Source: Kiritimatiellia bacterium | Lineage (GTDB): Bacteria > Verrucomicrobiota > Kiritimatiellia > RFP12 > DVOR01 | Direction: 5' to 3' | Length of the DNA stretch: 64,000 nt | Assembly (NCBI GenBank): GCA_034178815.1 | Contig: JAXFQS010000084.1 | Span: forward strand, 2,112-66,111 | Shown here: piece by piece, positions 2,179-62,226 of the stretch | Position numbering within the stretch: the stretch's first letter is position 1 | How the letters are laid out: every line of letters begins with the position of its first letter | Made by a program: the position numbers and the translations under genes | The notes under the pieces: generated by a model | Seen by the model: the letters and a program-made list of their open reading frames with translations, nothing else | What the model was told of the DNA's origin: nothing | The model's database searches: none

Positions 2179-2215
2179 CCGCCGGTTGCGTTAGGAAATT
2201 GAAGGAGTGTACCTT

Positions 2216-3368: not shown

Positions 3369-3635
3369 TCAGCGGCTGATTGTCCAAGCCCCCGTCCTGC
3401 GCCGCCGCCCGAACCGATTCCGTCAACGGTACGCGCCGCCTGAAGCCTTTTGCCTGCCCGCACGAGGGGATTGCCGCACGCTTGGAGCCCATGCGCCGAC
3501 GCTCGCAAGAGGTACCAACCTAGCGAACCGATTTCTAGTCGACAATGGCGTCCGGGTGTGGTAAACTTTGGGTCGTTTAGGTTGGCACCTTTCGCCACCT
3601 TTCCTACGCACCTTTTTGCCCGAGGATTTTCCGCC

Positions 3636-4730: not shown

Positions 4731-4741
4731 AGAACCGCCCG

Positions 4742-5851: not shown

Positions 5852-5857
5852 CACAGC

Positions 5858-6865
5858 ATGGCCGGAATCCGCATCGAAAACCTCACCAAGACCTACCCCG
5901 GCGGCTCGAAAGCCGTCGACAAAATCTCCCTCTCCATTGCTGACGGCGAGTTCATCGTACTCGTTGGCCCCTCCGGCTGCGGCAAGTCGACAACCCTCCG
6001 CATGGTGGCCGGGCTCGAAACCATCACCTCCGGCACAATCCACATCGGAGAACGCCTAGTCAACGACCTCCCCCCAAAAGCGCGCGACATCGCGATGGTC
6101 TTCCAAAACTACGCGCTCTATCCCCACATGAGCGTGGAAGAAAACATGGCATTCGGACTCAAACTCCGCAAAGTCCCGAAAGAAGAGATTCGCCGCCGCG
6201 TCGCCGAAACCGCCGCAGCCCTCGGTCTAGAACCCTACCTCAAACGCCGCCCATCCCAACTCTCCGGCGGCCAGCGCCAACGCGTGGCAGTCGGCCGCGC
6301 CATCGTCCGCCAACCAGCCGCATTCCTCTTCGACGAACCCCTCTCGAATCTCGATGCCAAAATGCGCGTAGAAATGCGCGAAGAGATTCACCGCCTACAC
6401 CGCCGCCTGGGCGCAACCATGCTCTATGTCACCCATGACCAAACCGAGGCAATGACCCTGGCCGACCGCGTCGTCGTGATGAACTCAGGCGTCATTCTCC
6501 AGACCGGAGCACCGTTGGAAGTCTACAACCGACCGGCCAATCTCTTCACCGCAGCCTTCATTGGAACGCCCCCGATGAATCTCGTCCCCGAGGGCGACCG
6601 CATCCTTGGGTTCCGTCCCGAAGATGCCCTTTTGACCGCCGAAACAGGCTCATTCGCGCTCCCCGAGGGTGTCGTGGAACTGCTTGAACCAGTGGGCGCG
6701 GAAACCATCGCCCATGTGAACCTTCCAGGGTGTTCGAGCCGCATCCAAGTCCGCCTTTCTCCCGATGCACCCATCCGCGAAGGTCAGCACCTGTCGCTCC
6801 ACATCAAAGCCGGGCGCCGCCACCTGTTCGACGCAGCCACGGGACAAAGAGTTGCCGACCGCTAA
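5858..6865 (+). CDS. ABC transporter ATP-binding protein, MalK/UgpC/MsiK type with C-terminal TOBE-like domain (no permease adjacent)
   Basis: Walker [10 protein letters not shown], signature LSGGQRQR, Walker [13 protein letters not shown]-loop YVTHDQ. Confidence 0.85.
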
Positions 6866-8464: not shown

Positions 8465-9585
8465 TGAACCTTTTCTCGCATCTCTCCGAAGAGGAGGACA
8501 GGGAGTTCCTGTCGCGGCAGATTCTCACCTGCATCGGAAACAAGCGAGCACTTTTGGGGCCGATTGCCGATGCGATAGGGGTTGTGAGGAAGGCGCTCGG
8601 TGGGGGAAAAATGCGTTGCTTCGACCTCTTTTCAGGGAGCGGAATCGTCTCGCGCCTGTTCAAGCAATTCGCCTCGCTCGTGGTCGCCTGCGATCAGGAA
8701 CGCTACGCCTCGGTGGTCTCCAGGTGCTACCTTTCCAACCGCCGTGTACTGGCGGAAAAGGAGTTCGCCAACTGCTTCGAAGAGTGGAAGAACTGGGTCG
8801 AGAAGAACCTCGAACCGGGCTTTCTCACGCGCCTCTATGCGCCCGCGAACGATGCCGACATCCAGCCGGGCGAGCGGGCCTTCTACACCCGGGCGAATGC
8901 CGAAATCCTGGATACCGCCCGCCGCGCACTCGACCGCATCGTTCCCCCGCGCTATGCCGACTTGCTGCTGGGGCCGCTCCTTTCCGAAGCCTCGATCCAC
9001 GCCAACACTTCCGGCGTGTTCAAGGGCTTCTACAAGAATCGCAAAGGCACCGGAGCGTTCGGCGGCGAAGGTCGAAACGCGCTCACGCGCATCTGCGGAA
9101 AGGTCGTTCTGCAACACCCCGTCCTCTCCCGTTTCGACTGCGACAGCCTCGTCCTAGAAGGCGACGCCAACGCACTCGCCGCGACAGCCCCGGAGGTCGA
9201 TCTGGCCTATGTCGACCCGCCCTACAATCAACACCCCTACGGGTCGAACTACTTTATGCTGAACCTGTTGGCTGACTACCGGGAGCCGGATGCCGTCAGC
9301 CCGGTCAGCGGCATTCCGCGCAACTGGAACCGGTCGGTCTACAACAGCCGAAAGGAGGCCGCACCGGCCTTCTTCAGCCTGCTGGAAACCATCCGCGCCA
9401 AGTACCTGCTCGTCTCCTACAACTCCGAAGGATTCATTCCGCACGCCGAACTGGAAGCCTGCCTGGCGCGGCTCGGGCAAGTCACCTCGACCGCCATCTC
9501 CTACAACACCTTCCGGGGAAGCCGAAACCTCCGCGCGCGCGCACCGCGCGTCATCGAGTACCTCTTCCTCGTCAAGCGCGCCTGA
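8464..9585 (+). CDS. Dam-family (D12 class, alpha group) N6-adenine DNA methyltransferase, apparent orphan
   Basis: motif X-like IGNKRALLGPI, motif I DLFSGSG, motif IV DPPY (DLAYVDPPYNQHPYG); start ATG overlaps exosortase stop (TGATG); no restriction endonuclease gene nearby. Confidence 0.7.
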   Translation: MNLFSHLSEEEDREFLSRQILTCIGNKRALLGPIADAIGVVRKALGGGKMRCFDLFSGSGIVSRLFKQFASLVVACDQERYASVVSRCYLSNRRVLAEKEFANCFEEWKNWVEKNLEPGFLTRLYAPANDADIQPGERAFYTRANAEILDTARRALDRIVPPRYADLLLGPLLSEASIHANTSGVFKGFYKNRKGTGAFGGEGRNALTRICGKVVLQHPVLSRFDCDSLVLEGDANALAATAPEVDLAYVDPPYNQHPYGSNYFMLNLLADYREPDAVSPVSGIPRNWNRSVYNSRKEAAPAFFSLLETIRAKYLLVSYNSEGFIPHAELEACLARLGQVTSTAISYNTFRGSRNLRARAPRVIEYLFLVKRA

Positions 9586-9717
9586 CGGCGACTAGGCAGG
9601 AGTCGCCTGCGTTGATACCAACCTTTCGGGCGAAACGATAGCCACCACACATGCCCCAAGGTGCCTATCCGACCGTGTGAAAGGTTCCCACCTATCCCCC
9701 TCCCCTAAAACAGAAAC

Positions 9718-9742
9718 GGGAGGTTGCGATAGGCAACCTCCC
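9718..9742. repeat. hairpin GGGAGGTTGC-gata-GGCAACCTCCC in convergent intergenic region; motif family member / bidirectional terminator candidate
   Basis: 10-bp perfect stem. Confidence 0.5.
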
Positions 9743-9768
9743 TCAGAGGGACACAGCCTGTCGAACGG

Positions 9769-12700
9769 CTAGAAGTGGCGCGGCCCCAGCGCCGGGCCAA
9801 GCGAACGCTCCTGCTGAAGCAGTTTCAACGCCTCGGGGATACGCTGCCTCAGTTGCGACACCTGGCTCAACCGCTTCAGCGCCGTCTCGCCGCCAACCTT
9901 GAGCGCCTGAAGCAACGCCTGGTGCCCATACTGCACCTGCCCTACTTCGTAGTAGAGAATTGCCAAGTTCCCCCACATCATCCAGTCATTCGGACAGAGT
10001 TTCAGATAGCGGGAATAGATGCTCATCACGGGCTTGTACGCCTGCGCCTGAAGCGCCGCTTGGAGCAGCGTCTGCAATTGTTCAGGCGAGAGATTGGGAT
10101 ACTTCAACGCCCGATCGATAGCCGTTGCCGCCGCCTCCAAGCGGCGCATTGTCGCCAGCACACGGGCAATCGTGCAAAGATCGGCAGGCGCCAAATTGGG
10201 AATCTTGAGCAGTTGCTCGTAGGCCTGCCCCGCGTGAAGCCCATCGCCCAAGTCATAATAGGCGGAAGCCAGCGTGGCGAGTTCCTTCGGAGAAATGGTT
10301 CCATTGCCCATTTTCGGCGCCAACGCAGCAACAGTCTGGCGCGCCTTGAGCACCCCTTCGAGGTTCGCGCAAAGACCAAGCGAACGCGTATTCTTCGGAT
10401 CTCTGGCGTTGAACTCGCGCAGCACGCGAAGCGCTTCCTCCAGCCGGTTTTGGGGAATCAGCACCTCTTGAACCAGGCGGAAGTTGGCCTCCGGGCTGAC
10501 CGGGTAGAGCGCACGCCCCTGCTCGAAAGCAATCTCGCTCTCGCGCCTCATGCCGCGATTGGCATAGAGCCCCGCCAACGCGCAACGCAACTTCGAGAAA
10601 GATTTCTGCGCGACCAAATCGCGACGGAATTTGCGGTCACGGGTCAACCGCCGCAGGTACCAGTCCCAGAAATCCAAGTCGGCATTCGCCGTCCTTCTGT
10701 CCAGCGGAGTCTCCTTCGCGTTGATCTTCATAATCAGGCCGTGCGGCGAGAGGTAAGGATACATCCACGGAATGACATAACTCTCTTCGAGATAGAAGTC
10801 GTGGCGAGCGATATTCTTCTCCCACATCATACGGCAAAGGATGCCGTTGATTTCCATGACCCCGAGTGCTCCTGAGACTTGAACGCGGCCGTTTTCCACC
10901 CGCAAATCGGCGTTGGCGGCGCGCTTGCCCTGATTGACCTCTTCGACATAGATTTGGAACGCCTTTGCCGAATCATCCGCCGAAGGGATCCACATCTGAT
11001 TGCCGTAAAGATCGCGTTCGACCGACATATAGGTGCCATCGGCGAGGGCATTCTGCGTGATGAGAAAGACATCCGGCCGCACATTCGCCGCATAGATCAT
11101 ATAGGTCGGCACGAAACGCCCTGGATCGGTTCCGCCGAAGAAGACGGCATTCGTGGTCATTGCCGGAGGATAGAGCGGATTGGGCAGAGGTTCTTCGTCG
11201 GGGGCGAGTTCTTCACGAATCGCGTCCGCCCCGCGCAACTGGTAATTGCCGAACTGCCAACCATAGTCGTGCCCATTCTGCTCGGCGGCACTGGCCTTGA
11301 AAACCAGATGGTCGTTCATAAAGTTCTCCCATACCGGCACGAGCGGCACCATCAGGGCAAGCACCGTAGCCCCAAGGCACGCCGGACGGAAGCAACTCGG
11401 CAGGTACTTGGCGCACACCTCCGCGCCAACGAAGAGCGCCAGAATCAACCCGTAGCCAATCCAGAGGGAATAGAGACCGTGGGAGGAGATGAACTTCACC
11501 TTCTGGATGAAGTAGTCCTGCAAATCGCCCGTGGGGTTGGCCAAAGCGATGAGCATGACCGACATCACCAGAAAGGCCAACATCGTGCCGATGAGCCATT
11601 GGCGGCTAAGCGGCGAAAACTCCTGGTGAAGCACGCAGTCGGCATCCGTCTTGCTGCCAGATGGGAGGAAGTTCCAAGCAAGCAAAAGCGCGCCGAATGT
11701 CAATCCAAATCCGAGGAAGATTGAGACAACACTGATGAGAACGGGCAAATGAGTGTGCCATATTGGAGTGTGCCACATTGTCGGCAGGACAGCCAACAAG
11801 ATACGCGAAACCAACGCCCCGATTCCCAGCACGATTCCGACAATCGCCAAGCCGCGCGTGATACCCTCGGCGGTCATTCTGTCACGCCAGGAATCGCGGG
11901 CTATCGAGACCACTTGCGACAGCCCAATGGTCACGAATCCAACGGCGCTGAGCAACACCATCCCGCCCATCAGATACTTGTCGATACGCCAAAGCGGCTC
12001 GGTCTGGAAGAGTTCTGCTATGAAAACCACCAGGGCGCAGAACAGGAAGAGCACAACGGCGGGCAGCAGCATCCGGATTCGGCGATTGCGCCAGATGAAG
12101 TTCCAGGCGGAGAATGGCAGAATCGCCAACGGCGCGACCAGCAGGGTGAATTGGACGCGCACATCGGTGAAGTAGTCGCCCAGTTGCTGGAGAAAGCGTT
12201 CAGTGAAGATGCTCTGGGCCGAAATCTGCTCGTACTGCCCGCGCGTAATGGCGTGCTTGAAGCCTTCCCAAGTCCGCGGATAGCCCCAGTTCATCGGGGG
12301 ATTGCGCAGGTCGGAGACGATTGGCATGTAGGCGTAGAAACTCACGCCCAATTCGCAGAAGAAGATGGTCGCGGCGACCGTTCTTCCGTTGGGCAGACAA
12401 ATCAAAGCCAGCCCGAGCAGGAGGAAGTTCCACAACACCGGCCACCAGAACCACCAGGTGCTGGGGTGGGACAGTCCTAGGAGCGCACCTTTGCGCAACA
12501 GCAGGTAGACCGTCAACTGCACAAACGCCACCGCCACCGCGAAGAAGGTGGCGCCTCGGGTCAGCGCGGATGTGACCGTCAGATAGACTAGTAGCGCCAC
12601 GACCACAACACCGACCGAGAGCCAATCCTGTATAGGACCGCGGAACCCTGTCGGTATGGATTGGGTAGGGAGCATTCCTATGACCACCAGCAAAACCAAC

Positions 12701-13905
12701 GCAACTACGCCAAGGGCGACAACAATGGGAACCAGGTCGGAGAAGCGTCTGCCCTGGTTGGAGAGCAATCCGCCGATGGCCGACAACCCGATTGCGACCA
12801 GAACGAGGAGTCCAATCCAGCAATAGGTCGCCGGCGCAATCAAAGGTGCCCAGTCGAGATGGGCGTCCACGACCGGAGCCGTGGTCGAGAACCTAGCGGC
12901 AAGGGCGACAAGCACCGCGCCGACGATTAGAGGAGCCGCGAGGAGCAACATCTGCCAGTCAAGCGGCCTCTTGGCAAAAGTATTGAGGCGCGAATCCGGG
13001 CGCGAAACGGCAACCTTGGTCAGAAGCGTCAACGGCACGACAAGGCAGAGGCAGGCAACGCCCGAAACCAGCAGCCCGGCGTGCGGATAGGCGAAACGCG
13101 CCCCTGGTTCAACGAGTGGACGCAGGATGCAAGGGGTCGAACTGGTGGCTCCGGGGAATGCCGTAGGCAGGGCGCCGAGCTGCAACATCCAGGCCGTCAG
13201 AAGGATGGGAATCGCCACCAGAACAAAGTCCCGGAAAAGGCTGGCGTTGCGCATGAAGATGATGAAGGCGAGCGGCACCGCCGCCAGCAGGAGCACCTGG
13301 TAGTTGGTCAGTCCGAGACCAAAAACAAAGGCCAACAGCCAGAGCGTTTTGTCGCGCGGGGCTTTCATCCACTGGTAGGTCAAGAGAAACACCCACATCA
13401 GGAAAAGCGCACCAAGAGAGTAGACCTCGACAATCGTCGACTGAGACCACATCACCGGAGAGAAGGCAAAGGCCAGTGCGCCGCCAACTCCGCCGGCCCA
13501 ACTGAACAGCGTGTCAAAAGCGGAAGACTTCTCCTCCTCCCGTCCGTTCCCACCGCGCAAATCGCTGAGCATGTCAGAGCCGGATCGCGTGATGAGCATC
13601 GCCGTGATGCCAGCCGCCAAAGCGCCCGCAACCGCCGAAGCCAGCGACACGGCGTAGGCCGGCGTAGGCTGGCCTCGGAAAGTAACCCAGTCGAACAGAC
13701 GGCAGAAACCCCAACAGATCATCGTCCAGATGGGATAGCCGGGCGGATGGGGAACGCCGAGTGCGTTGGCGGCGGTAGCCAACTCGCCCGAATCTTCCAA
13801 CCCGACAGAGGGCCCCAAGGTGAAGAAGTAGACGAGGAACGCCACGAGTGTGCCGGTCCAGAACGAAGCCCAATCGACGCGGCGGAAGAAGGAAGTGTTT
13901 TGCAT
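9769..13905 (-). CDS. giant polytopic membrane protein: N-terminal DUF2723 (GT-C/TMEM260-like glycosyltransferase fold) plus many TM helices and C-terminal TPR repeats
   Basis: N-terminus FFTLGPSVGLEDSGELATAANALGVPHPPGYPIW typical of DUF2723; long hydrophobic core; C-terminal TPR-like helical repeats; 21-nt downstream of topA (same strand). Confidence 0.5.
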   Translation of the reverse strand: MQNTSFFRRVDWASFWTGTLVAFLVYFFTLGPSVGLEDSGELATAANALGVPHPPGYPIWTMICWGFCRLFDWVTFRGQPTPAYAVSLASAVAGALAAGITAMLITRSGSDMLSDLRGGNGREEEKSSAFDTLFSWAGGVGGALAFAFSPVMWSQSTIVEVYSLGALFLMWVFLLTYQWMKAPRDKTLWLLAFVFGLGLTNYQVLLLAAVPLAFIIFMRNASLFRDFVLVAIPILLTAWMLQLGALPTAFPGATSSTPCILRPLVEPGARFAYPHAGLLVSGVACLCLVVPLTLLTKVAVSRPDSRLNTFAKRPLDWQMLLLAAPLIVGAVLVALAARFSTTAPVVDAHLDWAPLIAPATYCWIGLLVLVAIGLSAIGGLLSNQGRRFSDLVPIVVALGVVALVLLVVIGMLPTQSIPTGFRGPIQDWLSVGVVVVALLVYLTVTSALTRGATFFAVAVAFVQLTVYLLLRKGALLGLSHPSTWWFWWPVLWNFLLLGLALICLPNGRTVAATIFFCELGVSFYAYMPIVSDLRNPPMNWGYPRTWEGFKHAITRGQYEQISAQSIFTERFLQQLGDYFTDVRVQFTLLVAPLAILPFSAWNFIWRNRRIRMLLPAVVLFLFCALVVFIAELFQTEPLWRIDKYLMGGMVLLSAVGFVTIGLSQVVSIARDSWRDRMTAEGITRGLAIVGIVLGIGALVSRILLAVLPTMWHTPIWHTHLPVLISVVSIFLGFGLTFGALLLAWNFLPSGSKTDADCVLHQEFSPLSRQWLIGTMLAFLVMSVMLIALANPTGDLQDYFIQKVKFISSHGLYSLWIGYGLILALFVGAEVCAKYLPSCFRPACLGATVLALMVPLVPVWENFMNDHLVFKASAAEQNGHDYGWQFGNYQLRGADAIREELAPDEEPLPNPLYPPAMTTNAVFFGGTDPGRFVPTYMIYAANVRPDVFLITQNALADGTYMSVERDLYGNQMWIPSADDSAKAFQIYVEEVNQGKRAANADLRVENGRVQVSGALGVMEINGILCRMMWEKNIARHDFYLEESYVIPWMYPYLSPHGLIMKINAKETPLDRRTANADLDFWDWYLRRLTRDRKFRRDLVAQKSFSKLRCALAGLYANRGMRRESEIAFEQGRALYPVSPEANFRLVQEVLIPQNRLEEALRVLREFNARDPKNTRSLGLCANLEGVLKARQTVAALAPKMGNGTISPKELATLASAYYDLGDGLHAGQAYEQLLKIPNLAPADLCTIARVLATMRRLEAAATAIDRALKYPNLSPEQLQTLLQAALQAQAYKPVMSIYSRYLKLCPNDWMMWGNLAILYYEVGQVQYGHQALLQALKVGGETALKRLSQVSQLRQRIPEALKLLQQERSLGPALGPRHF

Positions 13906-36171: not shown

Positions 36172-39100
36172 TCAAGGCGTTCCTCCAATCTGCTCGGCCG
36201 GCAAGATGCAGGCGGCGACCGCGTGGTTGGCGTAGGTGCTGACCCGGACGGCAATGCGCTGTCCCTTGAGGCGCGGGAAGGGGTCGAGCCAGCCGCCGAG
36301 CAGTTCCATCTCCACCATACCCTTGACGCAGTCTGCCGAGCGCACCCGGAGGTCGATCGGCGAATAGCGGATGCCTGTTCCGAGCGCCTTCGAGACGGCC
36401 TCCTTCGCGCACCAGAAGCGCAACAACATAGCCGGCGCGTCGCCGCAGGATGCCGCGAGATTCTGCTCCTCCTGCGAGAAGACGCCGCGGGCGAATTCCT
36501 CGCTCAAATCGCGCCCCAGCCGTTCGAGATCGATGCCCAGCCGCGCATTCTCCGCCACAGCCGCCACGACCAGCGACGCCGTGTGCGCGATACTCAGATC
36601 GAGTTGGCCCCCCTGCTCCTGCATCCAGGGCCCGATGGCATGCGGCTTGCCCGAATCGTCCGGCCAGACCGCAATGTCCGCCGCGCCCCAACGCTCCCGG
36701 CGCGTCTCCTGCAAATGGCGCCGGACAGCCTCCTTCGCCGCCACGCGTCCCAGCATCCACTCCAGTCGGCGGGCGACCGAACTTGAGTTGTCGTACCACT
36801 CGTCGCGCTCCTGAGGCGTGAGCACAATCATCGCCAGCGTCTTGAGCCAAAGTTCCTGGTTCCCCGTGAAGAATCGCGGCTCGAAGGACTGCACCACCGC
36901 GCCCCATACCGGCACCGGCGCGGGCGGCATCAACTCGTTCGGCAACGGATCGGTGAAATAGTTCTCCGTGGGGCTCAGCGTAAAGTCATAGAGTTTGCGC
37001 GCCACATGCGTGCTGAGTTCCTCCCAGCCGTGGATTTCGACCAGCAGATTCCCCTGCCCGTCGCTCACCGATATGTCCACCGTTAGCGAACGAGGCGTCA
37101 CCCCCGTCAGCCGCAGATAGGCCTTCAACCGCCCGCCGGGCGGAGGCTCCGGCGCGAAAAAGCAAATCGACCGCGCGCGGAACGGAAACGAAATCGCGCC
37201 CTCAAACTTCTCGTGCGAGCGCCACAGCGGAAAGCCCGAGACCACCCCATCGAAAAGGATTGGCGCCACCGCGAAAGCCGGCAACTCCACCGAGGTGATT
37301 GCCTGCGCCGGAGAAGGCGCCTCCAACTCGAAGTCAATCCCGTTTTCGCTCCACGAATCGACATGGCGGATGGTGCGCAATTGGGGCCCCTGGAAGAGTC
37401 GGCGAGGATAGATGTCTCGCCCCGACCAGTTGACCGCACGCGGATTGACCAGAGGATTTGGACAGGCACGGCGCGTCGGAGGATAGGCCGCCGAAAAAAC
37501 CACCGTAGCCTCAAGAGCCGGCCAGGTGAAACCGGAGTTAGGCTGCTCCTTACGCAGTTGCACCTTCACCGCATACTGCCCGTCAATCCCCCACGACACG
37601 CGCTCCGCCCAGAGCCGCACATCCAGCAAGTCCCGCTCGAATCCCAGCCAGCGTTGCGCCTTCATCCCAAGGATTCGCACCACCCGCAAGCCATCCGGCA
37701 GAAGCCTCTGCGCCGCCTCGCACATCAGTTCGATTCCCGTCGGAACCGACAGCAGCGTCATGCCCCGCAACTGCGTATTGATGCGGGATAGTCGCGAAGA
37801 GCCCAGTGCGTAGTCGCGCAAGAACGGATAGTCCACCAATTTGATGGTTGCGTGCAGTTCCACCGAGATGCCCGGTTCCAGCGAGAGCACCCGAGCCTGC
37901 TGCAGAAGCGGCTGGCGTACGCCACAAGTGCGGTCCCCCTGCTCGGCATGCCCCGGCGCAATCGACGCGGGTGACTCAGCCTCGGGCAAAGCCGTTCGCA
38001 CCGGGTTGAGATTCACCCCCCCTTTGAGCGGATTCAAGAGCACATCGGGATCTACCCTTGGCAGAACAGAGTCCAGACGAATCGGCGGAGAAACCTCGCG
38101 GGGAACCGGCGTGTCGAAATCCAACATAACCGCCCCCGTGAACTCGTCAGCCCCAGAAAGATCCAGCGGCAGCGGCAACGCACCCAACTGCGCGATGGCG
38201 TGGCACAACTGCAAACGGTCCGGCCGATGGAACCGGTTGAGCGAAACACTCAAGTGCGGCCGCTCAGCACCCAATACTGCCGAAACCTGGCGCGCCAAAA
38301 GCCCGCGCACACCGGCATCGACAAAGACTCGGACGCCATCTTCATAGAGCCGTTCAACCGTGCCGGCAAAGTCAACCGGATTGAAGAACTGGTCGGCCAC
38401 CCACGCGGGATTCACCCGCTGACCTGCCTCAATCTTCCGATTCTCCGTGGTCGAGTAGATCGGGATTCTAGGGATATCCCGCAACCACGCGGAGCAGAAC
38501 TGGTTCAAGAGCGGCAAAGCCTTCGCCGCCCAAGGCGTATTGAAAGGAAGCGCCAGGTGACGAGCCGTCACGACTCCCCCCTGCGTCTGCATATCACTGG
38601 AGACCTGCGTAGCAATGTCGGGCGCGACGCAGATAAGGTGATAGTCCGGCGCGATGGCTTGTGAAACCACGCAACGCCCGGGATAGTCCGCGGCAATTTC
38701 TTCGACTTTCTGCCGCGCCAGACGCTCCACTGAAAGAACCGCCACGGAAGGCATGTCCTTGCGCGTAGCCAATCGAGACATCAAGCGGGCGGATTCTCGG
38801 ATAGCCCGGACGCGCTTGATGCGCAACTGCTGGTCGATGGTTGCTCCGGCGACGGCGGCGGCAGAGTAGGCCCCGCACCCAATTCCGGCAACCGCATCCG
38901 GCACAAGCCCCAAACGCGCCATCATATCGGTATAGGCGAGATTAGCGGCGTGGACATCGGCAATAGTCACCGCAGCAGTCAAAGCAGGCGGAGCGTTGTC
39001 AGGAGAGGAGGGGCGGACAGGGTAGAGCAAATCCGTCGCAGTGCCTTCGCCAAAAAGAGCGGAAAGGGCCTCCTCCGCCTCCTCAAGGCGTTGCCGGATA

Positions 39101-39495
39101 ATGGGAGAGCAGAAGGCCGCCTCACGGAGCATTTCGGGGTGCCAGGCGGTTGCTCCGGCATAAAGGAATGCGACCTTCCCTATGGGCGGTTCGCGGAAGT
39201 AATAGGTTCCGGCCTTGTCGCGAATGCGGGCAATGCCCGAGCGGATTTTACGGGCGGCGGTGCGCAGGCGATCGTGCAGAGAGAGCGTATCGCCTGAAGC
39301 GACGACCAGCCCCAATCGATGCGGAGCCTGTTTGGCGGCGAGGGCTGAGGTATAGGCGATATCGCGCAAAGAGACGCCCGGCGCATGCTCAAGGTAGGTG
39401 GCAATCCGGTCGGCCTCCTCGGCGAGTGCGTCGTGGGAGTGCGCCCCAATCAGCAGGACGCTCTGTGAAACGGAGGTGTCGCTGAGGTTGATCAT
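36172..39495 (-). CDS. type I PKS-like multidomain protein: KS-AT linker, AT-like domain (nucleophile Ser replaced by Gly; His replaced), PKS-type DH domain, C-terminal Sfp-type 4'-phosphopantetheinyl transferase domain
   Basis: linker region typical of KS-AT didomain; AT-like FLYAGATAW...GIGCGAYSAA (GHSxG->GIGCG), ...ALPFNTPW (HS->NT); DH motif LHATIKLVDYP; PPTase motifs GIDLERL and FWCAKEAVSKALGTG; ATGA overlap with upstream KS-like gene. Confidence 0.65.
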   Translation of the reverse strand: MINLSDTSVSQSVLLIGAHSHDALAEEADRIATYLEHAPGVSLRDIAYTSALAAKQAPHRLGLVVASGDTLSLHDRLRTAARKIRSGIARIRDKAGTYYFREPPIGKVAFLYAGATAWHPEMLREAAFCSPIIRQRLEEAEEALSALFGEGTATDLLYPVRPSSPDNAPPALTAAVTIADVHAANLAYTDMMARLGLVPDAVAGIGCGAYSAAAVAGATIDQQLRIKRVRAIRESARLMSRLATRKDMPSVAVLSVERLARQKVEEIAADYPGRCVVSQAIAPDYHLICVAPDIATQVSSDMQTQGGVVTARHLALPFNTPWAAKALPLLNQFCSAWLRDIPRIPIYSTTENRKIEAGQRVNPAWVADQFFNPVDFAGTVERLYEDGVRVFVDAGVRGLLARQVSAVLGAERPHLSVSLNRFHRPDRLQLCHAIAQLGALPLPLDLSGADEFTGAVMLDFDTPVPREVSPPIRLDSVLPRVDPDVLLNPLKGGVNLNPVRTALPEAESPASIAPGHAEQGDRTCGVRQPLLQQARVLSLEPGISVELHATIKLVDYPFLRDYALGSSRLSRINTQLRGMTLLSVPTGIELMCEAAQRLLPDGLRVVRILGMKAQRWLGFERDLLDVRLWAERVSWGIDGQYAVKVQLRKEQPNSGFTWPALEATVVFSAAYPPTRRACPNPLVNPRAVNWSGRDIYPRRLFQGPQLRTIRHVDSWSENGIDFELEAPSPAQAITSVELPAFAVAPILFDGVVSGFPLWRSHEKFEGAISFPFRARSICFFAPEPPPGGRLKAYLRLTGVTPRSLTVDISVSDGQGNLLVEIHGWEELSTHVARKLYDFTLSPTENYFTDPLPNELMPPAPVPVWGAVVQSFEPRFFTGNQELWLKTLAMIVLTPQERDEWYDNSSSVARRLEWMLGRVAAKEAVRRHLQETRRERWGAADIAVWPDDSGKPHAIGPWMQEQGGQLDLSIAHTASLVVAAVAENARLGIDLERLGRDLSEEFARGVFSQEEQNLAASCGDAPAMLLRFWCAKEAVSKALGTGIRYSPIDLRVRSADCVKGMVEMELLGGWLDPFPRLKGQRIAVRVSTYANHAVAACILPAEQIGGTP

Positions 39496-40865
39496 GGCTG
39501 ACTGACTGCGGCCGATTCGAGGAGTGCGAAGGCTGTGTTCCCGGTAAAGTCGATGGAGGCAACGGCTGCGCGGCGCGGGCGGGTTCGGGAGCTTACGGCA
39601 ATCCACGGGCGCGGGGCGGCGAGGGTGCAGAGATTGGGGGAGAGTCGTTGAATCTCCTTGTCGTCTGCGCAGGAAGGAGGAATGGCAGCGGCGCGGATGG
39701 AAAGGGCTGCCTTGAGTACGGCGGCGAGGGAGGAAGCGGTCAGTACATGTCCGATGGCGGTCTTGACGGAACCGACAACCATGGGTGCATTGGCTGCGTC
39801 GCGATAGCCGGCGATGGTCTGTAGGAATCGAAGTTCGGCTTGGTCTTGAAGGGGCAAGCCGGAAGCGTTGGCTTCGTAGAGGTCGATGGCGTCCATGTCG
39901 TCGAGCACTTCACGGCAGGCGCGGCGGAGGGATCGGAAGAGGGCATCGGCAAGGGGCGCGACCTGGAGGCTGGAGCAATCGGAGTGGGATTGCCGGGCGA
40001 TGGCTGAGCCAGTCCCGCGCAGGATGGCGTAGATGGATTCAGCCCCCCCCTGGACATCGCGCCTGCGTTTGAGGATGAGGATGGTGCCTCCTTCGGCAAG
40101 GGTGACGCCGTCGCTCTGGTGGTCGAATGCCAACAGGCGGGGGCGGGTGGAGTGGGGAAGAAGGGTGGCGAGGCCTTGGCGCGTGGCGGGTGAAATGGGG
40201 GGCTGAAGGGCGGCGACAATGGCCATATCACAACGCCTGGCGCGGAGTGCGTCGGAGGCCTGTTCCAGTGCGGTGATGCCGGAAGTCCAGCCCGTGTCGC
40301 AGAGGTTTGCTGGGCCGATGATGCCGAGGGTCTGGGCAATGCGCACGGGCAGGACATGGCGCCAGGCTGGTTCGATCGTGCGCTGTCCGAAGGGCGGCAG
40401 GGCTCGTCTCCAGGCATCGCGAAGGCGGTCGAAGTCGGCAGCGGTCAACTGGGGATTGGCGGCGCGGACGAGGCCTATGGTCTGGTCGAGAAGAAGGGTT
40501 TGCTGAAGCCAGTTGACGGAGGCGGGCGTGTGGACGGGGTTGTGGCAGAGGAAGAGGGCGGTGCGGTCTGTCTGGAGGGTGGAGGCGGGGTGGAGTCCGG
40601 CATCGGCGAGGGCTTCTCCAATAAGTTGGAGCAGGAAGCAGGCGGCGTGATCTTCGCCGGGAACCGGGGGCTCTCGCACGAAGGGGGCGTCGGCGGCGCA
40701 GGTATAGAGGGGCCCTAGGGTTTGGGCAGTGTCGGCGGGAATGGTGGCTCCCTGGACAATACGCCTCCAGAAGGTGGCGAGGTCGGGAGTTTCGGCGAAG
40801 CGGCAGGCCGCGCCTACTAGGGCGATGTCGTCTGACGAGAAGGCGCGGCGGGGCGGGTTCATGGG
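39492..40865 (-). CDS. ketosynthase-like protein lacking catalytic Cys/His (KS0 / chain-length-factor-like)
   Basis: KS fold landmarks: IALVGAACRF..FW, DTGWTSG (Cys->Trp), EANASG (His->Asn), AIGHVLTASS (second His retained); start at internal Met 40865, 8 nt after panB stop; Pro/Ser-rich N-terminal ORF extension rejected. Confidence 0.6.
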   Translation of the reverse strand, partial: PMNPPRRAFSSDDIALVGAACRFAETPDLATFWRRIVQGATIPADTAQTLGPLYTCAADAPFVREPPVPGEDHAACFLLQLIGEALADAGLHPASTLQTDRTALFLCHNPVHTPASVNWLQQTLLLDQTIGLVRAANPQLTAADFDRLRDAWRRALPPFGQRTIEPAWRHVLPVRIAQTLGIIGPANLCDTGWTSGITALEQASDALRARRCDMAIVAALQPPISPATRQGLATLLPHSTRPRLLAFDHQSDGVTLAEGGTILILKRRRDVQGGAESIYAILRGTGSAIARQSHSDCSSLQVAPLADALFRSLRRACREVLDDMDAIDLYEANASGLPLQDQAELRFLQTIAGYRDAANAPMVVGSVKTAIGHVLTASSLAAVLKAALSIRAAAIPPSCADDKEIQRLSPNLCTLAAPRPWIAVSSRTRPRRAAVASIDFTGNTAFALLESAAVSQP

Positions 40866-40875
40866 CGGGGGCGGA

Positions 40876-41634
40876 TTAGGCGAGCGTCTGGCGGTAGGCG
40901 GCGAGGGCTTGTCGAATGGTCTCTGCCGCGTTGCCGTAGGAGTTGGCGAAGGAGGGTTTGTGTCCGAGGGTAAGGCCCACGACATCGTTGAAGACGAGTA
41001 TGGTGGCATCGCAACGGTTGCCGGAACCGCAGCCGATGACGGGCACGGGGACGGCTTTGGCGATGGTTTCGGCGGGCTCTTCTGGTACGCATTCGAGGAC
41101 GATGGCGAAGGCTCCGGCGGCGGCGAGAGCTTGGGCATCGCGGGTTAGATTGGCGACGGCTTCGTCGGTTTTTCCTTGGCGGGAGAGGCCGGTGACGAGG
41201 ATGGATTGGGGGGTCAGTCCAATATGTCCGAGCACGGGGATTCCGTTCTGGACGAGGCGGCGAACGAGGGGGGCGCGGATGGCACCGCCTTCGAGTTTGA
41301 CGGCATCGGCGCCGGCTTGCTGGAGGTAGGTTCCGGCGTTGCGGAGGGCCTCGTCGTCGGAGATCTGGTAGGAGAGGAAGGGCATATCGGCGACTACTAG
41401 GGCGTCTTTGACTCCGCGCACGACGGCGGCAGTATGATGGAGCATAATGTTCTGCGTGACGGCGAGGGTGTTGGGATAGCCGAGCACGGTGTTGCCGAGC
41501 GAGTCGCCCACGAGGATGAGTTCGAATCCGGCTTCATCGGCCAACTGGCCGGAGACGGCGTCGTAGGCGGTCACGCAGGTGAATCGGCGAACGCCTTTGA
41601 GGGCGGAAATCTTGGCTGTGGTCCATCTCTTCAT
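40876..41634 (-). CDS. panB: 3-methyl-2-oxobutanoate hydroxymethyltransferase (ketopantoate hydroxymethyltransferase)
   Basis: TAYD, VGDSLGN, ADMPFLSY, VKLEGG, GHIGLTPQS motifs. Confidence 0.9.
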   Translation of the reverse strand: MKRWTTAKISALKGVRRFTCVTAYDAVSGQLADEAGFELILVGDSLGNTVLGYPNTLAVTQNIMLHHTAAVVRGVKDALVVADMPFLSYQISDDEALRNAGTYLQQAGADAVKLEGGAIRAPLVRRLVQNGIPVLGHIGLTPQSILVTGLSRQGKTDEAVANLTRDAQALAAAGAFAIVLECVPEEPAETIAKAVPVPVIGCGSGNRCDATILVFNDVVGLTLGHKPSFANSYGNAAETIRQALAAYRQTLA

Positions 41635-41708
41635 GCCTCACAGTATAGCACACTCTCGGGCGGGTGGGAATAGATTTTGAGCCGCGGGTGGGGGCAATCG
41701 GACGGCTA

Positions 41709-41877
41709 GCGGCGGGGCGACGAGAAGGTTGACAGGAGTTCTGCGAGGTATCCTTCTCTCAGTCCTTGGGAGCAGACCTCCAGTTCGCGGGCCTGGAGGC
41801 GTTTGACCAGGCGCATGAGGATGGACATACCGGGGAGGATGGTGTGGATGCGGTGGGAAACTTGGCTCAGGATGAGG
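41709..41877 (-). pseudogene. ppx: 3'-terminal remnant of exopolyphosphatase (Ppx/GppA) gene, approx. 56 codons
   Basis: translation ...ILPGMSILMRLVKRLQARELEVCSQGLREGYLAELL resembles end of Ppx/GppA actin-like domain II (E. coli PPX ...[35 protein letters not shown]); different frame from ppk fragment. Confidence 0.5.
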
Positions 41878-42729
41878 TCAATCGCGGCGCGGTCGCCCTT
41901 GGCTAGGCTGTTCCACAGTTTCCTCAGCCCGTCGGCGCATGAGGTCGGCCATAAACTCGCGGTAGTCGCGTTCGCCGTCGTATTCGCGGTCGGGGTCGAT
42001 GTCCGCGTTGCGGGCCAATCGGAAGAGGGTTGTCTCGCGCAGGGTGCAGTCCGGGAAGGCGTTGGCGGCGCAGAGGCGGAGGATCTCTTCTGAGAGCGCG
42101 AAGCGGCTTTTCCCGGGCAGGACGAGGAGTCTGGGCACGGCGGGAAGGGCACAGGAGATGAAGCCTAGGCGGGTTTTCGACGCGACATCTCCGCGGCGTC
42201 TGGCGAGCACGGCGAGGTAGGTTTCGCGGTCGCGCAGGAAGGGGGGGGGTCGATGTTTGCCGAGCAAAACGACGGAGAGGGTGTCGGCCATTTGTTCGCG
42301 GAAAATCGTCCGGGCGGCGGCTTTGTCCTGCGCGCTCCATTGGTTCGCGGGGACGATTTCGGTTGCGGCCTCGCGTTGGAGGGTTTCACGGAGATGACCC
42401 CACACCTCGGCGCGAAACGCAGAGAGACGCTGGACTTCCGAGCGGGCGGCGGCAAGTTGCTCGGCGACGGACAGACCCGTTTTTTCATCTGGTTCGCCGC
42501 CCAACTGCAGGCGGTCGACCAAGGCTCCGATGCGGACTTTGAAGAACTCGTCGAGGTTGGTCTGGAAGATAGAGAGGAAGGCGAGCCGTTCGCAGAGCGG
42601 CACATCGTCCCGGGCGGCCTCGCCGAGCACGCGCTCGCTGAACTTGAGCCAACTCAATTCGCGGTTGATGAAGAGGTTCTGCCGCGCCTCGGCGGGGAGG
42701 CTGTCCAAAGAGGGGTTGCGCTGATTCAT
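41878..42729 (-). pseudogene. ppk: polyphosphate kinase 1 truncated after N and head domains (catalytic C1/C2 domains absent)
   Basis: PPK1 N-domain FINRELSWLKFSERVL, LAFLSIFQTNLDEFFKVR, head domain through ...NADIDPDREYD...MADLMRRR; ORF stops after approx. 285 of approx. 700 expected residues and panB begins 243 nt downstream. Confidence 0.65.
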
Positions 42730-42893: not shown

Positions 42894-42930
42894 GAAAAAG
42901 AGGGCCGCCGGCATTGCCGACGGCCCTCGA
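42894..42930 (-). terminator. intrinsic terminator (12-bp stem, U5) downstream of giant secreted protein gene
   Basis: minus-strand RNA GAGGGCCGUCGG-caaug-CCGGCGGCCCUC-UUUUUC. Confidence 0.5.
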
Positions 42931-42945
42931 CTGCCAAGCGGACGC

Positions 42946-45900
42946 CTAATCGCCTAGCAGACGCTTCCAAGCCTTTTCGACCGCGGGCATCGACGACTCC
43001 GGAACGCCCAGCGCCTTGAGCACCTCGCGCGCAATCAGCCGGTGCCCGGCCGCGACCGGATGCACCCCATCGTAAGTGAAATGCCGCTCACCCGTCTTCG
43101 GCAGTTTTGCCAACGCCTCCACCTCCGCCCGCCGACAGTCCGCATAAGGCAACCCCCGGCGCTTCGCCTCGGCGCGGATGAAGTCGGCGAACAAATCGAG
43201 TTGGCGATTCTCGTCATTGTCCGGATTCTCCTGAATGAGCGTCGGCGTCAGCGGCACGACCAGCACCCCCGCACGCGCCGCCTTGTCGTAGATCTCCCGC
43301 ACATTCTGCTCATACGCCTCAAGTTCCACCCCGCGGCCCCAGTCATAGCCCCAAATGTCATTCACCCCGCAAGAGACCGTCAGCACCTTCACCTCGGGAT
43401 TCGAGAGAATTCCGCCTACCCGGCCGAGCATATCCCCCGCATTCTGCCCATCGCATCCCGCACGCACCGCCCGCACATCCTTGACGCCCACCGCATCAAG
43501 CCCCGCCAGCACCAGAGCGATATACCCCCTATCTCCGCCCCCCAGACGCGTAATGGAATCGCCCAAAAACGCAATCGTCTCCCCCGCCTTCACGCGAATG
43601 CCGCGCACTCCGGCCCTTGCTGGCGACGCCACAAACCCGTTCGGGCGCTCGAACCGCTGCCGCTCATAGAGTTCCGGCGGCGGGACGGCAGAACCCAGCG
43701 AGCACATCGTCCGAGTCGAGAACCCATCCGGAGCCGTCCGCCGCACGCAAAACCGACCACCCAAAATTCCAAACTCCTTCAAGAGAACATTCCCCGGCCA
43801 ATCAACTGCCGCCGCCTCGCCCCGACTGCGAAGCGCCCCCATCCACCACCGCCAAGCCGTCCCCGTCACCAGCAGTCCGCCCCCCCCTCGGACAAACTCC
43901 GCCAGTTCCGCCGCTTCCCCATCCTTGAGCGACGAACCATCCACCTTCCGGAATCGCCCATTGACCGAAAGCCACCGCACAATCTGCTCACGAAGCCCCC
44001 TGTTCTCAGGCAGTTCCAGCGACTCCGAATCATCGGCAACATAGACCACGCGCCCCTTCCCCGCCCCCCCTGCTGCAGCCACACACGCCGCCGAACGATC
44101 CCAATTCCTCGCAGCAAAAAGCGGGAACGCCCCCTTCCCCGTGCAATAGACCGAGCCCGCCAAACCATTCACCTTGAAATAACGCGTTCCCGCCGTCAAC
44201 TCCGCCCGTGCCGCGAGTTGCTCAGCAGTCAGCGGCTCCGCCCAAGGCGCAATCTGAGATTGAGGCGCAACACAGTCTGACACGCACACCCGGAACCCCG
44301 TCGCGCCGTGGCCAATCACCGGAGCCGTCTTGCTTCCCAGCCGCCGCCCCCAGGCCGCACAACTCCCTGGATCACCATAGCAAAGCACCGAACCGCCTTT
44401 CATCACACGCCGCCCCTTGTGGCTTCGACTCTCATCGCGAGGCCCCACAGGATCCGTCCCGGAACAGTCCAACAGGCTCTCCGGCGTATTGTGGAAATCA
44501 AGACAGTGCTCAAACAGATTTCCGTGCATATCGTAAAGCCCCCACAGGTTCGGCCGGTACGACCCAACCGCCGCCGGACAAGCCACCCCGCCACAGTTTC
44601 CGCTGTAGCGCCCCAGCGTATCCAAAACGCGATCCCGCTTGACGCTCATAGGCGGCTTGGCATCCTTCACCTTGTAAGGCGCCGCCGCCTCTCCAGTCCC
44701 CCAAGGCCCCTCGCATCCGGCACGACACGCCCACTCCCATTGAGCCTCGGTCGGCAAATCGAAGTCGGCACGAAATCCCGTCAATTCGCGCAGACGACCG
44801 AAAAAGGAGTCGGGCGCGACCTCATATCCCGAGAACGGCCAGCAGATACCGTCGGATGTATGTCCACGCGTATGGCTGTAAGAAATTCCGTTGACAGGAA
44901 GGCTCCCCCGAGCCTCCGAATGCCCGAAGGTGTCCCCGCGCCATGCCCCCATAATGTGGAACCACTGCCTTTGAGTCACCTCGTAAACCCCGATATAATA
45001 GGGGCGGGTCAAAGTCACCCCATGACGCGCATCAGCCCCAGAAGAGAGTTGCGGATTGCCCAAGAAGACCTCGCCGGGCGTAGGTTCGATTCGGCGCAGC
45101 AGCAGCCAATCACCCTTCCACCGCTCGGCCTTCTCTCCTTCTGGCACAGACTCGCGAGTCGGATAGAGTTCAATTTTCCCCTCGTCCGGCCCCGTTAGGC
45201 AGACGCCCATATAAAGTCCCTTTACCGGAGTCGTCGCCAGCGGCTTGTACGGTTCCCGAACCAACCCTCGAACTAGTCCGTCCGGAGCCTTCGCATACTG
45301 GGAACAGTGCCGCGCAGCCGCCTCGGATACCGGCAACGACCACTGACGCATCACAGCCGCAAGATCCTGCTTCACGGCGGCGGAAAACTCCCGGGCGAAG
45401 ACATCCCACTTATCTCCATTCGTACGCGGCACCGCAAAGCCAGGCTTTCGGTAAACGGCGAACACCCGTGCCATCGCGTCCCACCCATAGGTTTCCACCA
45501 GTCTGGCGTAAAACTCAAGCGCGAGGAAGGGATCTTTTTTCCAACTCTCGAAGCGTTTACCCGACGCCACCCACTGCCGCACTTTGGCATCCGCGACGGC
45601 ACGGGCTGTCGCGAAACCGTTCTCCCGGAAACTGCGTCCGGAGACTTTGGATATGCCCAACAGGGTGAAGAGGTTGACGGTGACTTCAGAGGTTCCTTCA
45701 GGCGTCCAGGCGGGATTCTGGTGATTGTGTCCGATCTCGTGGTAGACGCCCCAGGCTTGGGCTCGTTCCAACGCCTGACGGTCGAGGATTACCGCCGAAG
45801 GGTTGCGCCGATTGACTAGAGCCATCATGGGATAGCCGTCGTGAAGGACTCCGATCCCTTGCAATTGGATGTCGCTGCAGAGGCGTTCGGGAGAACGGCG

Positions 45901-47478
45901 AGAAGGCAAACCGGAGAGCCACTGGCAAGCGTCGAGATAGCGATCCCAGTAGGCCGCGACCCACTCGGGATCCTTGCATTGCGCCAGGCCGGTGGTCTCG
46001 AAGGTGATGATGTAGTTGAGGCCTTCAATTTCCCCCTGCGGCGCACCAGTCTGGCGGCACTCTTCGAAGAATCCCTCGGCGGTATCGCGTCCCAGTTTGA
46101 ACCAGGGCGCCATCACGGCTCCGTCAATGCGGACTTTGAAGCGTTTGCCCGCGGCGGGGGGCTGGTCGGGGACGATGATGTAGACGAGTCCGCCGAATGG
46201 GGAGGTCAACTCGACGCGGGATTGTAGCACAGGCGCCTCGGTGGTGACAAGCGGAAAACGCTTCCAGCCCTTGGCCGCGCCGGAGAGGTCATCCTGGGTC
46301 GTGCCGATGCGGATGCGGAGGTTCCAGTCGGCGGCGCCCTCGGGGAAGGTAAAGGTTATCCGGCTACCTGCCGGGGCGAAGAGTCCTGTCGAATGCCAAC
46401 GCGGAACATCAGGTTCGATTTCAATCTCGCGCGAGACGGTCGGGGTTCCGGGCTTGACCAGACCTGGATAAACTTCGGCGGCGGGGTCGGCGGGCCAATG
46501 CCTGAAGCGGTCGGTCTCGTAGGCGGCTTTGCGGGCAAGGATGGCAAGTCTGGCGAAGATGTCTTCGGGTTCCACGGGATGTTCCGGGGAGGGCACTTTG
46601 GCGGCGTCTGGGTGCTTAGCGAAAGCGGCAATCTTCTCCAGCACGCCTTGAGGGAGCGAGGGGGGCAGGACGGCGGCCATTTGGGAGAGGACGACGGCTA
46701 CTTGCCGTTTCTGTTCGCGGCTGGAATAGGTGTTTTTGGCGGCAATCTGGAGTGCGTCGTCGGCGCGGGTACCGTCGGGCACGGTCTGGGGATCGAGCGG
46801 GAAGCCCTGCTTGTCGGGGCGGACGATTCCGATGTCGCCCATCAAGATGCCCATAGGGCCGAAGGTGCGATTGTCTCCGAAGTCGTCGGCGAAGGAGACG
46901 GCCCGGGAGCGGCTGGCGATTTGCTTCCAGCCCCAGCCGAGTCCGGCACCGAGGAGTCCGCCTCCATTGCGGACGAAGTCGAGATAGGCGGGGGCGTTCT
47001 GGACGGTGAAGTCGATGGAGGCGATGAGGTCGTAGCGGGGAAAGTCGGCGGTATCGGCGACGAGGGTGGATTCAATTCCGGCGCGCTTGAGGGCGTTTCG
47101 GATGGAGGGGTTTCGGTAGACGCCGATTTTGGGGGCGGGCTTGTTGCGCGAGAGCCAGCGGACGGCATTGCGGTGGAATGCTAGGGTATCGTCGGAGAGT
47201 TTGCCGTGGGTGAGGAAGGAGGGGTGTCCGAGGTAAATGGCTCGACCTTTGCCGTAGATTGCTCCGGCGGCGGCGAAGGTCGCGGTACCGTCCCAGTTCT
47301 TGGCGCGGGCGATGGGGAAGGCTTCGTCGGAGAGGACGAGCACGGTGCCGGGGAGACCGTCGCAGTTGATGGCACGGACGCCTTCGGCGAGTTCTTTGGG
47401 GAGCGTGGCGGAGGCGGCGTGCAGCACGGGGGCGAGAAGGGCGCCGAGGAGGAGGTTTTGAAGCAGTCTATTCATCAT
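42946..47478 (-). CDS. 1510-aa secreted multidomain protein: ThuA-like domain, M60-like/enhancin zincin peptidase domain (HEIGH), FGE-sulfatase (SUMF1-like) domain, second ThuA-like domain, C-terminal SGNH/GDSL hydrolase
   Basis: signal peptide MMNRLLQNLLLGALLAPVLHA; M60-like YHEIGHNHQ...E; FGE motifs RPYYIGVYEVTQRQW, GSYRPNLWGLYDMHGNLFE, KGGSVL...GFRVCV; SGNH block I IAFLGDSIT and block V DGVHP. Confidence 0.65.
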   Translation of the reverse strand: MMNRLLQNLLLGALLAPVLHAASATLPKELAEGVRAINCDGLPGTVLVLSDEAFPIARAKNWDGTATFAAAGAIYGKGRAIYLGHPSFLTHGKLSDDTLAFHRNAVRWLSRNKPAPKIGVYRNPSIRNALKRAGIESTLVADTADFPRYDLIASIDFTVQNAPAYLDFVRNGGGLLGAGLGWGWKQIASRSRAVSFADDFGDNRTFGPMGILMGDIGIVRPDKQGFPLDPQTVPDGTRADDALQIAAKNTYSSREQKRQVAVVLSQMAAVLPPSLPQGVLEKIAAFAKHPDAAKVPSPEHPVEPEDIFARLAILARKAAYETDRFRHWPADPAAEVYPGLVKPGTPTVSREIEIEPDVPRWHSTGLFAPAGSRITFTFPEGAADWNLRIRIGTTQDDLSGAAKGWKRFPLVTTEAPVLQSRVELTSPFGGLVYIIVPDQPPAAGKRFKVRIDGAVMAPWFKLGRDTAEGFFEECRQTGAPQGEIEGLNYIITFETTGLAQCKDPEWVAAYWDRYLDACQWLSGLPSRRSPERLCSDIQLQGIGVLHDGYPMMALVNRRNPSAVILDRQALERAQAWGVYHEIGHNHQNPAWTPEGTSEVTVNLFTLLGISKVSGRSFRENGFATARAVADAKVRQWVASGKRFESWKKDPFLALEFYARLVETYGWDAMARVFAVYRKPGFAVPRTNGDKWDVFAREFSAAVKQDLAAVMRQWSLPVSEAAARHCSQYAKAPDGLVRGLVREPYKPLATTPVKGLYMGVCLTGPDEGKIELYPTRESVPEGEKAERWKGDWLLLRRIEPTPGEVFLGNPQLSSGADARHGVTLTRPYYIGVYEVTQRQWFHIMGAWRGDTFGHSEARGSLPVNGISYSHTRGHTSDGICWPFSGYEVAPDSFFGRLRELTGFRADFDLPTEAQWEWACRAGCEGPWGTGEAAAPYKVKDAKPPMSVKRDRVLDTLGRYSGNCGGVACPAAVGSYRPNLWGLYDMHGNLFEHCLDFHNTPESLLDCSGTDPVGPRDESRSHKGRRVMKGGSVLCYGDPGSCAAWGRRLGSKTAPVIGHGATGFRVCVSDCVAPQSQIAPWAEPLTAEQLAARAELTAGTRYFKVNGLAGSVYCTGKGAFPLFAARNWDRSAACVAAAGGAGKGRVVYVADDSESLELPENRGLREQIVRWLSVNGRFRKVDGSSLKDGEAAELAEFVRGGGGLLVTGTAWRWWMGALRSRGEAAAVDWPGNVLLKEFGILGGRFCVRRTAPDGFSTRTMCSLGSAVPPPELYERQRFERPNGFVASPARAGVRGIRVKAGETIAFLGDSITRLGGGDRGYIALVLAGLDAVGVKDVRAVRAGCDGQNAGDMLGRVGGILSNPEVKVLTVSCGVNDIWGYDWGRGVELEAYEQNVREIYDKAARAGVLVVPLTPTLIQENPDNDENRQLDLFADFIRAEAKRRGLPYADCRRAEVEALAKLPKTGERHFTYDGVHPVAAGHRLIAREVLKALGVPESSMPAVEKAWKRLLGD

Positions 47479-61861: not shown

Positions 61862-62208
61862 CCAATTCCACCGCACTGTAAGCCAGATTCTGTCCCGCCG
61901 AAGCGGTGCGAGTCATTTGTCTAAGCGGCCAACCCGGAACTTGTCCGCCGAAGCGGTGCGGTACGGACAGCACCTCCGTTCCCTATTTGGCCTTGCTCCG
62001 GAAAGGGCTTGCCGCGCGGCGGAGGCTCACACCTCCGCCCGGTGGTCTCTTACACCACCTTTTCACCCTTGCCCGTTGGGGCGGTCTGCTTTCTGTTGCG
62101 CTTTCCGTCGACGCTTTATAGAGGCGTCGCTCCCGGGTTTCCCTCGGGATTTCCCGTCCTGTGGAGTCTGGACTTTCCTCTCTCCGAAGAGAGCGACCCG
62201 CCGTGCGG
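61862..62208 (-). ncRNA. rnpB: RNase P RNA, bacterial type A
   Basis: reverse strand contains GGAAAGUCCAGACUCCACAGG (P4 5'), AGGGUGAAAAGGUGGUGUAAGAGACCACC (P10-12), CCGGAGCAAGGCCAAAUAGGGAA (P15 region), GACAGAAUCUGGCUUACAG (P4 3'); P1 closes UCCACCGCAC/GUGCGGUGGA. Confidence 0.85.
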
Positions 62209-62226
62209 TGGAAAAGGAAATCGGCC

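Follow-up and report, generated by a model that had tools for sequence, protein, structure and literature searches.

In the bacterial ppk1-ppx operon of the E. coli type, the gene for polyphosphate kinase 1 (PPK1) is accompanied by that for Ppx. E. coli-type PPK1 has a four-domain architecture (N, H, C1 and C2), and this is common to the intact PPK1s of two relatives of the genome studied here, L162 and L005, in which ppx likewise comes directly after ppk1 and its start codon overlaps the ppk1 stop. E. coli PPX differs from its counterpart in these relatives, since it has 513 aa and carries C-terminal HD-like domains, whereas Ppx here has 306 aa and consists of the ASKHA domains only; the intact 306-aa protein scores 202 bits against TIGR03706, below the cut-off of 307. 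Compared with the E. coli-type operon, the version found in the window (the whole stretch of Kiritimatiellia DNA that was analysed, 64 kb in length) has been cut to two end fragments which, from what they still encode, would be non-functional.

A second point of comparison is provided by the pseudogenes that arise by illegitimate, RecA-independent deletion, mediated by microhomology between short direct repeats. The locus described here resembles them in the one surviving repeat copy, in its kilobase scale and in the frameshift, nonsense and missense changes that came later. All that sets it apart from the usual cases is that one species carries both the deleted allele and the intact one, with about 98% identity between them.

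There is also a likeness to the split or truncated ppk1 genes of other gut bacteria, which have a similar ORF limited to the N-terminal and middle domains. However, their C1 and C2 half is kept as the next, overlapping ORF, whereas in the window it is physically absent. In one such unrelated gut bacterium (L164, positions 4001-6188; also L165 and L166), the N-terminal and middle domains are encoded by an ORF at 4001-4957 (318 aa) and C1 and C2 by an ORF at 4917-6188 (423 aa). The same split recurs across independent samples (at least 14 contigs), and either a recoding site or a pseudogene with a fixed frameshift could explain it. We found no description in the literature of the locus in the window, or of ppk loss in Kiritimatiellia. 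What we describe is an ordinary gene loss that is polymorphic within a species, a standard pair of pseudogenes from a short-repeat deletion.

Two gene remnants and their intact counterparts

The 5′ remnant of ppk1 lies at 41929..42729 on the minus strand and retains codons 1-267, that is, the N-terminal and middle (head) domains only. It is part of an ORF on the same strand that runs from an ATG at 42729 to a TGA at 41878 and encodes 283 aa. In Pfam searches, this ORF matched PP_kinase_N (PF13089, 2.1e-29) and the PP_kinase middle domain (PF02503, 1.7e-23), the latter over profile positions 2-136 of 183 only, and the remnant gave no Pfam match to the PLD-like domains C1 (PF17941) and C2 (PF13090). 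In agreement with this, its alignment with solved PPK1 chains, which are about 685 aa long (e.g., 1XDO), covers their residues 2-254, and it scored 160.6 bits against the NCBIfam model for polyphosphate kinase 1 (TIGR03705, profile positions 2-251 of 673), thus failing the equivalog cut-off of 465.85. Pfam and the structure alignment therefore bear out the original prediction of an N-terminal and head domain ORF without C1 and C2. The predicted length of about 285 residues was right for the ORF, but not for the PPK1 piece itself. Beyond residue 267 there is no homology to PPK, and the 16 codons that remain (41878..41928, minus strand), which translate to AEETVEQPSQGRPRRD and end in the TGA stop, are a read-through of ppk1 into out-of-frame ppx DNA.

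The 3′ remnant of ppx occupies 41709..41936 on the minus strand, followed by its stop codon at 41706-41708. These 228 nt correspond to the last 76 of the 306 codons of a short Ppx/GppA gene, are in a frame different from that of ppk, and overlap the 3′ end of the ppk-frame ORF. The 76-residue peptide, which ends in ILPGMSILMRLVKRLQARELEVCSQGLREGYLAELLSTFSSPRR, matched TIGR03706 at positions 233-299 of 300 (E 4e-8) and Pfam PF02541 at positions 236-283 of 285 with 21.8 bits (E 1.5e-4), below the gathering score of 27. Furthermore, residues 231-306 of the L005 Ppx aligned to it by tblastn with 87% identity. The expectation of a Ppx C-terminal tail in another frame was thus correct, although the retained piece is 228 nt (41936-41709) rather than the 168 nt originally given. 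It has no start codon of its own and lacks the N-terminal ASKHA half; the full two-domain ASKHA fold of a Ppx/GppA protein is not present, as the catalytic half is the one that is missing. When the window was searched by tblastn with intact proteins, residues 1-267 alone of PPK1 were found, and residues 1-230 of Ppx were missing.

The most informative comparator is L162 (GCA_051884955.1, contig JBJEWH010000026.1), a metagenome-assembled genome. It shares 98.0% identity with the window in the upstream flank (10.8 kb) and 97.9% in the downstream flank (9.3 kb), with no indels in either, which places it in the same species. In L162, ppk1 (696 aa), ppx (306 aa) and panB are all intact, and the gene order is otherwise identical to that of the window. 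Its PPK1 (P0243) shows all four PPK1 Pfam domains and scores 704.6 bits against TIGR03705, above the cut-off of 465.85, and the Ppx-GppA and panB domains were likewise found by Pfam. The ppk1 remnant in the window is identical to this protein at 257 of 267 residues, and the ppx remnant to the L162 Ppx C-terminus at 71 of 76.

A sister species at about 91% nucleotide identity, L005 (JBJFGP010000091.1), aligns collinearly with the window in both flanks, its positions 2-6801 corresponding to 48729-41929 and its positions 8773-12801 to 41941-37914. Between these flanks it has about 2 kb of extra DNA, which completes a four-domain PPK1 of 696 aa and a Ppx/GppA of 306 aa, again followed by panB. The L162 PPK1 belongs to the 90% cluster of the L005 protein, but is much nearer to the window. 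In the intact allele, the end of ppk1 and the start of ppx share 4 nt. Since ppk1 adjoins ppx in more distant Kiritimatiellia as well (L007, L008 and L031), the intact pair is ancestral. As a side observation, the PPK1 of the gut genus to which L005 belongs (L005 6001-8088 and its homologues) is about as similar to PPK1s of Clostridia/Lachnospiraceae (50-56% identity) as to those of other Kiritimatiellia (52-54%), for which either conservation or an old transfer between gut bacteria could account.

The deletion junction

Intact orthologues thus stand at the same locus in L162 and L005, and a single collinear gap separates them from the window allele, as expected of a pseudogene. Relative to L162, this gap is exactly 1,984 bp, beginning at codon 268 of ppk1 and ending at codon 230 of ppx, with the remainder collinear. 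The comparison of intact loci hence upholds the proposal of a single deletion of about 2 kb across ppk and ppx. What was lost from PPK1 are residues 268-696, i.e., the end of the head domain and all of C1 and C2. In E. coli PPK1 (1XDO/1XDP), the corresponding region holds the autophosphorylated histidine and the ATP site. Three quarters of Ppx are gone as well, namely residues 1-230 with the N-terminal ASKHA domain and its catalytic site.

At the junction itself (41929..41937, minus strand), an imperfect 9-bp direct repeat has been reduced to one copy, CGCCGACGG. The intact allele has both copies, CGCCGCCGG at codons 265-267 of ppk1 and CGCCGACGG at codons 230-233 of ppx, and their consensus is CGCCG(C/A)CGG, with five matching bases on one side of the mismatch and three on the other. 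Both L162 flanks align across window positions 41937-41929 (one up to L162 position 10801, the other from 12777), offset by 1,984 bp. The L162 sequence reads CTCATGCGCCGCCGG/AAACGCC on the ppk1 side and GCGACCGCCGACGGGCTGAAG on the ppx side, and the window reads CTCATGCGCCGACGGGCTGAGG. At a match probability of p ≈ 0.26 per base, as given by the base composition, two arbitrary positions would agree in eight of nine bases with a chance of about 1.4e-4, such that the microhomology is a real feature of the junction. The same base composition gives an estimate of about 600 equally good 8-of-9 repeat pairs in the 3-kb operon. With several hundred such pairs expected, this one is no special hotspot.

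The junction is not confined to the window. It recurs in four other samples from three data sets, which come from different studies and assemblers: L002 (3,375 bp, ENA assembly ERZ28573628, 97.9% identity to the window), L003 (587 bp, sample SAMEA104467385, 97.4%), L004 (1,083 bp, sample SAMEA104467166, 97.0%) and L163 (8,883 bp, Logan assembly of ERR12020521, 98.1%). A scan of JGI metagenome contigs with a 20-mer from just upstream of the junction, where it would pick up either allele, returned 77 loci, none of them similar to the window, as is explained by chance matches in GC-rich DNA. A further contig, L001 (1,556 bp), diverges abruptly from the window at about 41993-41994; its last 25 nt (1532-1556, GCCTGCGCCGGGATTCCAAAATCGA) have no match in the window, L162, L163, L005 or L002. 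They may be an artefact of the contig end, or that strain may have an insertion here; we do not take them as another allele.

We consider it very probable that the window carries a null allele that arose by one illegitimate, microhomology-mediated deletion. According to this proposal, an ancestor would have had ppk1 (696 codons) and the short ppx (306 codons) upstream of panB. The 9-mers CGCCGCCGG in ppk1 and CGCCGACGG in ppx would have mispaired, either by slippage during replication or by annealing after a break, and the 1,984 bp between them would have dropped out. Since 1,984 has the form 3n+1 and ppk1 and ppx are read in different frames, the deletion did not fuse them in frame. With the ppk frame running through 16 junk codons to a stop, and with the ppx tail left without a start, both genes would be dead and their fragments free to drift as pseudogenes, while panB would have retained its own spacer and a candidate promoter. 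We infer from the missing catalytic domains that the deletion allele yields neither PPK1 nor Ppx.

Among the alternatives, the one that fares best is that the scar arose more than once, by two deletions at the same 9-bp repeats which were resolved on either side of the mismatch. The reason to consider it is position 41932, where L163 has a C and the window, L002, L003 and L004 have an A. This is precisely the single position at which the two repeat copies differ, and the chance that a later point mutation would hit it is small. However, a single annealing event with an unrepaired heteroduplex that then segregated, or a later substitution, would also explain the A/C difference. Moreover, with some 600 comparable repeat pairs available in the operon, nothing marks this pair as a site to which deletions would return. 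Twelve derived sites in the flanks are common to all deletion alleles and absent from L162, whereas any other grouping is supported by at most five sites (in about 2-3 kb of sequence). We therefore regard recurrence as unlikely, and the shared sites favour a single deletion followed by diversification.

Decay of the remnants

If both remnants are pseudogenes, they should have been released from constraint, and this is what we observe. The ppk remnant of L001 and L002 is frameshifted by a common 1-bp deletion at about 42231, and in L163 codon 27 has changed from TGG to TAG, such that W27 is replaced by a stop. The ORF in the window itself is still open over its 283 aa. Substitutions were polarised with L005 as the outgroup, and over the 795 bp of the ppk remnant this yielded 19 derived changes in the window, 16 in L002 and 16 in L163, as opposed to 2 in the intact L162. 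In panB and KS, on the other hand, the deletion alleles have 17-22 derived substitutions and L162 has 19, and the contrast with the remnant is significant (Fisher p = 0.0014).

The nature of the changes points in the same direction. Between the window and L002, pN/pS is 0.59 in the ppk remnant and 1.06 in the ppx tail, compared to 0.07 for panB and 0.00 for the gene upstream, and N:S counts of 24:12 stand against 1:8 (p = 0.006). There are 24 amino acid differences between the window remnant and the L005 PPK1, 11 of which are derived in the window and one in L005. One change in the window, N31S, affects an Asn found without exception in nine outgroup PPK1s. Among the deletion alleles, the ppk remnants differ from one another at 21-29 sites in 795 bp (2.6-3.6%). 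The excess of substitutions, the pN/pS values, and the frameshift and nonsense lesions together amount to the relaxed constraint that characterises a pseudogene. The mutation spectrum was also considered as a marker of decay, but was of no use, since the GC-to-AT bias does not differ between remnants and flanking genes.

These data speak to the possibility that the 283-aa protein is a functional and conserved short PPK-like protein, for instance a regulatory or polyphosphate-binding module. The ORF is, after all, intact in the window, from which a truncated protein is possibly expressed, and the protein database holds many short PPK matches with N-terminal and middle domains only. However, these short matches lie on contigs of 1-5 kb, and in the one examined the gene is split, with the half that encodes C1 and C2 coming directly after. 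A conserved function is also hard to reconcile with the frameshift in L001 and L002 and the codon-27 stop in L163, with an 8-fold excess of derived changes and raised pN/pS, and with the loss of an invariant Asn. A functional short PPK is thus very improbable. The broken sister copies argue for gene loss, as had been proposed, and against a conserved family of N-domain-only PPKs.

Finally, that the contig was collapsed or mis-joined at about 41930 and the true genome has an intact ppk1-ppx pair can practically be dismissed, in spite of an intact allele in the same species (L162) and of a 283-aa product identical to a protein from a metagenome-assembled genome, which suggests that the window stems from such a genome as well, because the identical junction in L002, L003, L004 and L163, four independent assemblies, contradicts an assembly collapse at about 41880, because the shared repeat of just 9 bp is far below assembler k-mer sizes, and because artefacts do not create independent secondary lesions and excess substitutions in the remnants.

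Genomic surroundings and significance

The scar lies in an ordinary piece of chromosome, the window also encoding EF-G, ribosomal protein S1, TyrRS, topoisomerase I and RNase P RNA. The last of these is of bacterial class A (61863-62212, minus strand; 211.8 bits, full length) and is the sole Rfam match in the window, in which no tRNA genes were found. The downstream neighbour of the scar is panB, the gene for ketopantoate hydroxymethyltransferase (40876..41634, minus strand; PF02548, 1.7e-90). It starts at 41634, so that panB does indeed come next as had been stated. The gene is intact, and its pN/pS within the species is 0.07-0.19. The retained ppx-panB spacer contains a candidate sigma-70-like promoter, TTCCCA-17-TATACT with a TG (41642..41670, minus strand), the one site in a consensus scan in which 0.1 were expected. 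Going by this pattern match, panB expression is probably independent of the ppk promoter. A strong hairpin resembling an intrinsic terminator (42900..42928, minus strand), with a 13-bp stem of which 11 pairs are G-C and a T run, lies 3′ of a gene for a 1510-aa protein, and as a predicted element it marks the putative upstream limit of the ancestral ppk-ppx unit.

Some features of the neighbouring genes deserve mention in their own right. The 1510-aa protein (42946-47478, minus strand) combines M60-like peptidase, FGE-sulfatase (formylglycine-generating enzyme-like) and GDSL lipase domains, and in L162 its counterpart is preceded by a separate FGE-sulfatase gene and a gene for an ECF-type sigma factor. 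On the other side, panB is directly followed by a ketoacyl-synthase gene, and downstream of this comes a gene for a 1144-aa protein with acyltransferase, PS-DH dehydratase and 4′-phosphopantetheinyl transferase domains. This pair (36172-40862, minus strand) is kept in L162 and L163 and, in its predicted domains, resembles a compact PKS or PUFA synthase.

With respect to other enzymes that act on polyphosphate, the Pfam-scanned ORFs of the window contained no PPK2, no second ppk1 and no further Ppx, and the L162 gene calls contained neither a PPK2 nor a further Ppx. For the 64 kb covered, this bears on the original suggestion that the organism may lack PPK1-type polyphosphate metabolism or use a PPK2 encoded elsewhere.

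Several practical points follow for the annotation of these genomes. The 283-aa product of the remnant is identical to NCBI MDY5954663.1, a member of the 90% cluster of the L005 PPK1 that is annotated as a "hypothetical protein" and that should be flagged as a ppk1 pseudogene. Likewise, a 40-aa ORF called in other assemblies is the ppx remnant. With its precise breakpoint and visible post-deletion decay, the locus is a clean textbook case and can serve as a strain marker.

The finding leaves the current picture of polyphosphate metabolism and of deletion mechanisms as it was. It does document, in an uncultured gut species of Kiritimatiellia, a within-species presence/absence polymorphism for the main pair of genes for polyphosphate synthesis and degradation. 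Whether the loss was adaptive rather than neutral is a separate matter. The clade without PPK1 and Ppx has diversified and is present in at least three metagenome data sets, while the intact lineage persists, and we regard an adaptive loss as conceivable, though rather doubtful. If the loss should nevertheless prove adaptive, the species would offer a natural within-species knockout with which to probe the worth of polyphosphate to an uncultured gut anaerobe.
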